This document shows positions 17,775-18,272 of a DNA stretch of 36,111 bases, piece after piece. Where the stretch lies: NCBI GenBank assembly GCA_028875135.1, contig JAPPFQ010000149.1, positions 1 to 36,111 on the forward strand, written 5' to 3'. The notes beneath the pieces are model-generated. The model saw only the letters and a program-made list of their open reading frames with translations, searched no databases and was not told the origin of the DNA. The DNA is from Acidobacteriota bacterium (GTDB taxonomy: Bacteria > Acidobacteriota > Terriglobia > Versatilivoradales > Versatilivoraceae). A program made the position numbers and the translations under genes. Every line of letters starts with the position of its first letter. Position 1 is the first letter of the stretch.

Positions 17775-17895
17775 CAAGACTGTGATGCCCGCAACGCTTG
17801 TCTTTCAACGAGGGGTTGCCCCATGTCAGAAGACTCCCTTTTCGGAGCGTCACGATTTCCCCTCCCGGGGTCAGATGCAAATGGCGTCAGATGGT

Positions 17896-18259
17896 CCGCC
17901 ACCTTTCCGACGGGGGGTGGCGGGGAAAGGTGGCGGGGATTCTGTTACCCACAACGCCGTTCTCTCAGAGGGCGGAGCCCGCCCCGTTGTGGTTCGAGAC
18001 GTTCCCCGAAAAGCCGCACCGGACGCGGGACAACACGGATGTCCCGCATCGGCGGCGGCACAGCGAAGCGAGGCTGCGCCTCGCGGGTCCCCCCCTCGCG
18101 CGCCTGGGCGGCGTGGCGTACGAGGAGGGTGCTGGTGGTGAGAGCGACCCCCCCTTTTTTGGCGCTGGTGCGCCATGGAGGAGGGCAAAGGTGGCGGGGC
18201 CTCTGGCGGCCTTTGCCCCCCTCTTTTCGGGGAGGTCGCTCTCACCACAGTGATCCCTG
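17896..18259. promoter_or_regulatory. Candidate oriT / structured non-coding region
   Basis: A 13-bp perfect IR lies at 17896-17908/17924-17936. A reverse copy of the hairpin repeat at 17949-17992 is flanked by CCACAACG/CGTTGTGG. A GCGAGGC-TGC-GCCTCGC hairpin lies at 18068-18084. A 15-bp perfect IR at 18135-18149/18234-18248 encloses nested hairpins. ATCCCTG at 18253-18259 follows 4 nt after the IR. Confidence 0.45.
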
Positions 18260-18272
18260 CGGGAAGGCTTAG

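Follow-up and report, generated by a model that had tools for sequence, protein, structure and literature searches.

The window analysed here, a stretch of 36,111 nt, is the whole of contig C355 from a fragmented Acidobacteriota genome (768 contigs, 4.15 Mb, 63% GC) and carries a type IV secretion system (T4SS) gene cluster. The 498-nt gap between orf317 and the coupling-protein gene virD4 of this cluster, together with the 3' end of orf317, holds one copy (17686-18269) of a dispersed element of ~430 nt. We consider this element most likely the origin of transfer (oriT) of an acidobacterial conjugative or mobilisable family, with a 3' tip that independently serves as the crossover site of P4-type integrases; judging from sequence comparisons, we place the probability of this reading at about 0.55. 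The anatomy, conservation, copy number, gene neighbourhood and integrase junctions of the element were observed in the genomes themselves. If correct, the reading provides a sequence-level handle on conjugation in a phylum that, to our knowledge, has essentially no experimental conjugation biology, made up of a candidate oriT, integrase-bearing hitchhikers, and candidate relaxases of the MOBC-like type whose address repeats would be swappable. A single cis site acting as probable oriT and as integrase landing pad would also explain the dozens of small islands per genome in these symbionts. It offers two directly testable pairs: the tip with the integrase, and the repeated words with the winged-helix protein.

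The original prediction, made from the letters of this stretch, had described the gap as a structured non-coding region and a candidate oriT with a MOBP-type nick. The features on which the argument rests, all on the + strand, are as follows.

16821-17774, + strand: orf317, directly before the 498-nt gap
17686..17777, + strand: 5' conserved block GATCGACGAGTTCCGCCTCTGGAGGTCAAG..., overlapping the 3' end of orf317 (from the genome-copy alignment and the information profile of 99 anchored copies)
17778..17937, + strand: window-specific partial duplication of ~160 nt (17778-17807/17938-17967, direct repeat at 70%)
17949..17992, + strand: hairpin CCACAACGCC...GGGCGGAGCCCGCCC...CGTTGTGG, start of the ~320-nt core detected by blastn in other copies (helices 1-4)
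18013..18084, + strand: two conserved hairpins, GCCGCACCGGACGCGGGACA / TGTCCCGCATCGGCGGCGGC and GCGAGGC-TGC-GCCTCGC (helices 6 and 8)
18135..18248, + strand: long-range stem GTGGTGAGAGCGACCCCCCC / GGGGAGGTCGCTCTCACCAC, enclosing GGCGC-TGGT-GCGCC (18161-18174) and an inner hairpin
18249..18269, + strand: 3' tip AGTGATCCCTGCGGGAAGGC, the sharp end of the element, integrase junction in other copies and candidate nick of the original prediction
18273-20315, + strand: virD4 coupling-protein gene (Pfam TrwB_AAD_bind, TraG-D_C)
18338-18357, + strand: tip look-alike GGCTCGATCCCTGGCCGGCC in virD4 codons ~23-28, second integrase junction in other genomes
24623-25657, + strand: orf344, after ArdC

No frame of the gap showed gene-like codon-position GC (0.60/0.74/0.65 in the gap versus ~0.67/0.47/0.80+ in the genes), and a Pfam scan of its two long open reading frames (ORFs; 17823-18272 and 17798-18253) gave no match. 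The gap was therefore rejected as coding DNA, in agreement with the prediction that it contains no credible ORF. The structural landmarks named in that prediction were recovered as well: a 13-bp perfect inverted repeat (17896-17908/17924-17936), the direct repeat AAAGGTGGCGGGG in two identical copies (17926-17938 and 18187-18199), the GCGAGGC-TGC-GCCTCGC hairpin (18068-18084), a 15-bp perfect inverted repeat (18135-18149/18234-18248) that extends to 20 nt at 95%, the GGCGC-TGGT-GCGCC hairpin, a 14-bp inner stem with one mismatch (18178-18191/18210-18223), and ATCCCTG 4 nt past the outer inverted repeat (18253-18259). The structure is real, but the region is a copy of a dispersed repeat rather than private intergenic DNA. 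This multi-copy nature, the overlap with orf317 and the integrase junction at the tip were missing from the prediction.

When the gap was used as a query on the window's own genome, 23 matches were obtained on ~19 other contigs. The longer ones showed 68-84% identity, and most spanned window positions 17949-18268; the length of the full unit was taken from a hidden Markov model built on these own-genome copies. The element was found in all 13 searched genomes of the genus (public name Candidatus Versatilivorator). Eleven genomes from the family's other genera were searched without a match, and other families of the class gave weak matches in 3 of 16 genomes (E 1e-4 to 1e-11). The closed genome G007 has at least 40 copies (43 matches with 40 of the 121 candidates scored). 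A scan of named genomes with a 24-nt pattern of the 3' end matched more than 112 stretches, nearly all from metagenome-assembled genomes labelled Candidatus Versatilivorator, Versatilivoraceae, Terriglobia or Acidobacteria. No match was found among PLSDB plasmids at blastn sensitivity. Three copies lie together on one small separate contig of a near-complete genome (G004:C2, L133+L134, 22,263 bp), next to IS630-like and IS4-like transposase genes (the IS4-like one fused to a DruA-like domain), an integrase fragment and a Sel1-repeat gene; this contig has no T4SS genes.

The two ends of the element differ in character. The 5' start, GATCGACGATTTCCGCCTCTGGGGGTCAAGG, lies in the window within the last ~90 nt of orf317, and conservation on this side fades gradually into the orf317 reading frame with no sharp boundary. 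The DNA of the 5' block is conserved also in copies preceded by an unrelated ORF. At the 3' side the element stops sharply with ...CACAGTGATCCCTG(G)CGGGAAGGC, also given as ...CAGTGATCCCTG(G)CGGGAAGGC: in 120 anchored copies, the information content drops to zero ~18-26 nt past GATCC. The ATCCCTG motif near this end is nearly invariant in more than 100 copies. Other copies of the element are without the 17778-17937 segment, which carries the 13-bp perfect inverted repeat and a second set of words. Because of this extra partial duplication of ~160 nt, the gap between orf317 and virD4 is longer in the window (498 nt) than in six other T4SS loci (345-441 nt).

Folded as single-stranded DNA, 17949-18272 reached -102.3 kcal/mol, compared with -76.5 ± 4.7 kcal/mol for 100 dinucleotide shuffles, none of which was as good (z = -5.5). 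Pairing was evaluated in alignment A1, composed of 108 non-redundant copies and the window, with the minimum-energy fold of the window as the structure tested. This structure was kept in 73.7% of the alignment cells, versus 46-54% when the partners were slid by 1-3 columns, and cells with double changes numbered 401 versus 182-283 in the slid controls. Both counts are biased by the relatedness of the copies and by the use of a structure taken from one member, but the margin over the slid controls is large. In helices 6 and 8, 68% and 84% of cells were paired, with 9 and 5 pairs, respectively, changed on both sides. The outer stem was paired in 92% of cells across 109 sequences and contained two covarying pairs (AU 75 / UA 25; GC 76 / AU 26), while CG and GC interchanged at one pair of the GGCGC/GCGCC hairpin. 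The variable inner hairpin (18178-18224), which repeats the word AAAGGTGGCGGGG, had 10 of its 14 pairs changed on both sides. Since the z-score of -5.5 is accompanied by compensatory changes across copies that are only 70-84% identical, these results suggest that the structure is under selection.

Besides the conserved helices, the element has a variable 5' part with two to three direct repeats of a copy-specific word at a period of 12-13 nt. Exact 7-mers repeated two to four times at this period were present in 70 of the 108 copies. The word sets of the window are GGGTGACA at 17756 and 17769, and GGTGGCGGGG at 17916 and 17929, the latter recurring at 18190. The 5' and 3' variable parts shared a common substring of at least 9 nt in 35% of copies, versus 11% of shuffled pairings. 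The idea that the same word always occurs in both variable parts was rejected, since it holds only partly.

The gene that as a rule precedes the element, either whole or as a 5'-truncated remnant, is orf317. Among ~120 loci selected solely by the 3' motif of the element, 85 had an orf317 homologue or fragment directly upstream, of which 14 were full-length and the remainder were C-terminal remnants of 30-190 residues. T4SS genes were far scarcer in this set: virB8 was found in 5 loci, and at least the first virD4 codons in 18. The order orf317, element, virD4 is present in seven loci (the window, C125, L011, L026, L047, L096 and L105), with protein identities of 65-88% across them.

Replic_Relax (PF13814) is the family of the MOBC relaxases (PMC5357655), whose prototype, TraX of pAD1, combines an N-terminal winged helix with a restriction-endonuclease-like catalytic domain (PMC12857230). 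orf317 gave no Pfam or NCBIfam match, and no PF13814 match even at E <= 1; none of its 475 homologues has a recorded Pfam domain either. In the ESM Atlas, the model of orf317 matched a Replic_Relax cluster, in which 54% of members carry PF13814, weakly (TM-score 0.57/0.73 over 213 residues). Its AlphaFold2 (AF2) model was of low confidence (pLDDT 58.8) and gave weak fold matches (Z 5-6.2), mostly to PD-(D/E)XK nucleases. By these predicted structures, orf317 looks like a protein with a winged-helix-like N-terminus and a restriction-endonuclease-like C-terminal domain, and it is a candidate MOBC/Replic_Relax-like relaxase or relaxosome protein.

The second protein of this type, orf344, is more clearly Replic_Relax (MOBC)-like than orf317. 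It scored 19.8 bits against PF13814 (E 9e-4), below the cut-off of 25.3, and 11 of 37 members of its family matched PF13814 below threshold (best 1e-4). In its AF2 model (pLDDT 79), residues 88-174 matched MarR/PadR winged helices (Z ~10), and its nearest named ESM Atlas clusters were all PF13814 (score 0.90). Foldseek and VIA-wide searches with orf344 matched the winged helix only, with the C-terminal domain not queried separately. In the domain that follows the winged helix, P265-D266 and E284 are invariant and K298 is nearly invariant. The relation of orf317 and orf344 to Replic_Relax clusters, as seen by predicted structure and language model, supports distant kinship only. Two paralogous Replic_Relax-like genes are present in the window, at 780-1769 and 24623-25657 (329 and 344 aa, ~83% nucleotide identity), and each directly follows an ArdC gene, one in each variant tail of the contig.

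The tip of the element is joined to integrase genes in many copies. A convergent P4-type tyrosine integrase gene (Arm-DNA-bind_3 + Phage_int_M + Phage_integrase) lies downstream in 54 of 122 full-length copies, with its 3' end mostly 0-100 nt from the tip. In 15 further copies, the integrase gene precedes the element and is co-oriented with it; in seven of them the distance is ~1.0 kb, which is what an intervening full-length orf317 would give, as in locus L140. An integrase adjoins the element in 79 of the 122 copies. In a comparison of ten copies, the integrase unit had a sharp left boundary 113 nt 5' of the start codon (TGCTGCCGCCGCCGCAACG...), and its 3' junction always ran through AGGGATC, the reverse complement of the tip sequence GATCCCT. 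Past this junction lie the element tip, the virD4 look-alike or other DNA. The set of 69 distinct integrase 3' ends included at least 28 joined to the tip and at least five (L136, L137, L138, L147 and C5) joined to the virD4 look-alike. GATCCCTG occurs at two sites only in the 36-kb window, 18252 and 18342. These observations are best explained by the tip being the core of the integrase reaction.

No tyrosine integrase gene was found in the window or its 25.6-kb unit, though the whole element is kept there. Therefore, the role of the element in this unit appears not to be the unit's own integration. Isolated tips were rare (9 of 143), and several of them are deletion variants. Arm-type motifs (GCGTTGT/ACAACGC) common to the element and the integrase-side flank were sought and rejected, being found in 7 of 114 flanks. 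The 5.3-Mb genome G007 gave 66 matches to the integrase (examples are L136:3720-5057, L143, L144, L145 and L147), about ten of them copies of 90-95% identity and many others C-terminal fragments, and the family looks like a recently proliferating integrase element.

Sequences 3' of the tip group into a few flank families. In 'family B' flanks (L022, L023, L125, L132 and others), the first ~150 nt past the tip are AT-richer and contain tandem repeats such as TGTAGCGTTG TGTAGCGTTG, possibly arm-type sites of a 'family B' integrase variant. In nine copies with 'family D' flanks (L029, L032, L034, L056, L058 and L094), divergence sets in directly after GATCCCTGCGGA and the sequence continues as an AT-rich end that is itself conserved, ..ATTGATGTAACGCACTTTATACAAAGGACTTATGG.., a picture that would fit insertion of a different site-specific element, perhaps an insertion sequence (IS), within the tip.

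Three observations point to the oriT of a MOBC-like system: the position of the element between a Replic_Relax-like gene and virD4 is conserved, variable direct repeats are combined with conserved inverted repeats, and the whole element is retained on a unit without a tyrosine integrase. We infer nicking, protein binding and transfer, as well as which side of the integrase junction is the 'target'. The copy-specific words and their inverted copies would be address sites for a cognate winged-helix Replic_Relax/MOBC-like protein (orf317 and/or orf344), and the relaxosome and nicking region, beside the coupling-protein gene, would consist of the conserved hairpins and the long-range stem. The last ~20 nt (GATCCCTG(G)CGGGAAGGC) are taken, independently of the oriT function, as the crossover site of a proliferating P4-type integrase family, whose small islands sit at the tip or carry the element and orf317 with them. 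The arrangement integrase, orf317, element may represent a minimal integrative mobilisable element (IME), and many orphan copies would be reduced to an integrase and the cis site. In such reduced copies, orf317 could decay because the relaxase-like gene can be supplied in trans. Islands of this kind at the tip would account for the high copy number (dozens in each genome), for the abrupt 3' end and for the erosion seen in the orf317 remnants.

Several points weigh against this reading. Dozens of copies per genome are unusual for an oriT, and the tight coupling to integrase 3' ends fits an attachment (att) site at least as well, as far as the tip itself is concerned. The kinship of orf317 to MOBC relaxases rests on predicted structures of modest quality; the profile comparison between orf317 and orf344 was not significant, and its alignment was confined to the winged-helix region. 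The clearest relaxase-like gene, orf344, lies 6.4 kb from the element, and none was found in the vicinity of orphan copies. The 5' and 3' variable parts have their words in common only to some extent. Folding energies of the + and - strands showed no consistent difference, and an impression of + strand folding gained from G-U pairs was withdrawn for this reason. Function as a single strand is therefore only a possibility, and the covarying inverted repeats could equally be read as paired protein-binding sites on duplex DNA.

The observations at the tip raise the alternative that the element is an integrase attachment site, composed of the P arm and core of an attP, rather than an oriT. The words would then be arm-type sites, GATCCCTG... 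the core, and the copy before virD4 a captured or targeted att site. We regard this as unlikely, although much of the integrase evidence is in line with it: the convergent 3' ends ~0-100 nt from the tip in 54 of 122 full-length copies, the at least 28 of 69 distinct 3' ends joined to the tip at AGGGATC, and the Arm-DNA-bind_3 domain of integrases that look recently active (~10 copies at 90-95% in G007). Moreover, integrase-linked copies lose homology just past the 5' end of the element at variable points, as if element and integrase together were the selected unit, and short isolated tips do occur (9 of 143). Such tips, however, are far rarer than junctions, and no motif is generally common to the element and the integrase-proximal flank (7 of 114). 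The unit in the window, without a tyrosine integrase, keeps the full element in the same placement as in six other T4SS loci, and compensated hairpins are not a usual requirement of an attP. Use of the virD4 look-alike and of other sites points to a short target core rather than a 430-nt arm. Overall, a target is favoured by the use of this short look-alike and by the T4SS copies without an integrase, while an attP arm is favoured by the tight conservation of the element-plus-integrase unit. A further variant, which we consider quite unlikely, is that minimal units in sponge-associated Acidobacteriota consist of an integrase that homes to the oriT tip or the virD4 look-alike, with the oriT as a multi-copy integration platform. 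Each unit would thereby gain an oriT and ride on conjugative elements, giving arrays of 'oriT -> | <- integrase' modules. Under this variant, the constant tip and the varying 5' truncation of orf317 could even stem from partial, T-DNA-like transfers with the tip as starting point.

Two other explanations, a structured RNA and a functionless repeat, are possible but fit fewer observations than an oriT with an integrase crossover tip. It is improbable that the element is a structured RNA, whether one that belongs to virD4 (as 5' leader or regulatory RNA) or one of the mobile elements that acts in trans. The conserved helices with compensatory changes would suit an RNA, as would the location inside a co-oriented operon, the short distance of 3-20 nt from the end of the element to the virD4 start, with GGGAAGG placed like a Shine-Dalgarno sequence, and the tolerance of some G-U pairs on the + strand. 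On the other hand, Rfam 15 gave two chance-level matches on 17000-19000 (E 0.76 and 0.95), far below gathering scores, and no sigma70-like promoter was found in a scan of 17500-18500. The same scan gave two terminator-like matches, both of which are parts of the element hairpins. The + strand has no consistent folding advantage over the - strand, and most copies precede a convergent integrase or unrelated DNA, not a co-oriented gene. It is also very unlikely, in our view, that the element is a functionless selfish or neutral dispersed repeat, similar to miniature inverted-repeat transposable elements (MITEs) or repetitive extragenic palindromic (REP) sequences, or what is left of decayed conjugative elements. 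Such a repeat would be expected, as is the case here, in dozens of copies per genome, many of them truncated and often amid IS elements and integrase fragments, and mostly confined to one genus (13/13 genomes; 0/11 in the family's other genera). Nevertheless, the copies are old (70-84% identity), yet their helices are compensated and invariant blocks are kept. No terminal inverted repeats span both ends as in a MITE; those present are internal, and the 5' boundary is gradual. Additionally, the element has a fixed position beside orf317 and virD4.

MOBP-type origins (RP4/R751 oriT and Ti borders) have the nick core ATCCTG|C. The original prediction took the region for such an oriT, nicked at ATCCCTG, and/or for ssi-type priming hairpins for the RepB'-like primase, a version that now appears highly doubtful on sequence grounds. 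The inverted repeat followed, 4 nt on, by ATCCCTG|C does resemble the IncP/Ti nick region, and the motif hardly varies across more than 100 copies; a + strand nick here would send virD4, virB11, primase and ArdC into the recipient first. However, the canonical ATCCTG is absent from 17601-18400, where only ATCCCTG, with one extra C, occurs. No PF03432 or other HUH relaxase domain, as expected of a MOBP relaxase, was found among the 20 ORFs scanned, and two Replic_Relax-like proteins are present instead. ATCCCTG coincides with the crossover junction of a tyrosine-integrase family, and use as an integrase core explains its invariance equally well. Taken together, the absence of ATCCTG, the lack of a MOBP relaxase among these ORFs and the other explanation for the invariance leave the MOBP nick unsupported. 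The part of the prediction that stands is that virD4 and a DNA-processing-type gene flank a structured cis element, which is conserved and compatible with an oriT. Group II introns, TnpB omega-RNA, IS110 bridge RNA, integron attC sites and Frpo-type single-strand promoters were also set aside; genes for a reverse transcriptase, TnpB, an IS110 recombinase and IntI, which the intron, omega-RNA, bridge RNA and attC ideas call for, are absent nearby.

By analogy, the closest described layout is that of pAD1 oriT2. The pAD1 origin also adjoins relaxase and coupling-protein genes. Similar to the putative system here, pAD1/pAM373 oriT2 of Enterococcus faecalis is served by a relaxase, TraX, of the winged-helix plus restriction-endonuclease-like type (PMC5357655, PMC12857230), and inverted repeats and short direct repeats stand next to a Replic_Relax/MOBC-like gene in both (PMC12857230). 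TraX of pAD1 binds five direct repeats located 70-120 bp from nic (PMC12857230), whereas the element here has two to three repeats at a 12-13-nt period. The element differs further in belonging to another phylum, Acidobacteriota, and in having relaxase-like proteins that either fall below the Pfam threshold (orf344) or are detectable by predicted structure only (orf317). It also has a far more elaborate multi-hairpin core and dozens of copies per genome, is known from sequence alone, and has a tip that is at the same time an integrase site.

SXT-mobilised mobilisable genomic islands (MGIs) of Vibrio are islands that carry an integrase and an oriT. Resembling IMEs and MGIs, the smaller units here have an integrase and the cis site only, and outnumber the conjugative elements that they would need. 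They are unlike these islands in that the 3' tip of the cis site itself is the integrase junction, and in the at least 40 copies per genome with a heavily eroded relaxase-like gene. Streptococcal IMEs have a compact set of integrase, relaxase-like gene and cis site (PMC5357655), which corresponds to integrase, orf317 and element. With P4-type integration at the 3' ends of tRNA and tmRNA genes, the present case shares the integrase class (Arm-DNA-bind_3 + Phage_int_M + Phage_integrase), a precise junction with the 3' terminus of a conserved sequence rich in structure, and an integrase gene beside that junction. In contrast, the structured target here is no known RNA gene, is itself multi-copy and lies on mobile elements, and it is the 3' end of the integrase gene, not the 5' end, that faces the junction.

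The other annotated genes of the window, which surround the element, are listed below.

8489-11092, + strand: virB4, T4SS cluster
11089-12072, + strand: virB9-like gene, T4SS cluster
12026-13432, + strand: virB10-like gene, T4SS cluster
14177-15070, + strand: TrbJ-like ORF, T4SS cluster
15094-16146, + strand: virB6, T4SS cluster
16150-16824, + strand: virB8, T4SS cluster
20312-21298, + strand: virB11, T4SS cluster
22007-22891, + strand: RepB-type primase
23162-24619, + strand: ArdC, 3' of the T4SS cluster
26381-27430, + strand: PriCT/HTH protein, after orf344

The contig contains ~1.4 units of a ~25.6-kb element. Two copies of a 7.56-kb segment, offset by ~25.6 kb, are 99.3% identical (2960-10517 versus 28561-36111), while the segments before this repeat are just 83-85% identical (1-2171 versus 23721-26059) and run into different replication modules (RepA_C, 2193-3041, versus PriCT/HTH, 26381-27430). 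This layout may reflect two related plasmids in tandem, or two strain variants linked during assembly by the segment that they share.

The motif CCACA..(G)GGGCTkCGCCCCTGAGAGAG, a 5-bp GC hairpin followed by GAGAG, recurs at gene boundaries of the plasmid (+ strand, 4170-4203, 13395-13438, 21637-21681 and 23087-23130; - strand, 5936-5967 and 17949-17992). The first hairpin of the element core (17949-17992) is a reversed copy of this recurrent motif, which could serve as operator for a global regulator, as a hairpin with terminator or stabiliser function, or as a binding site.

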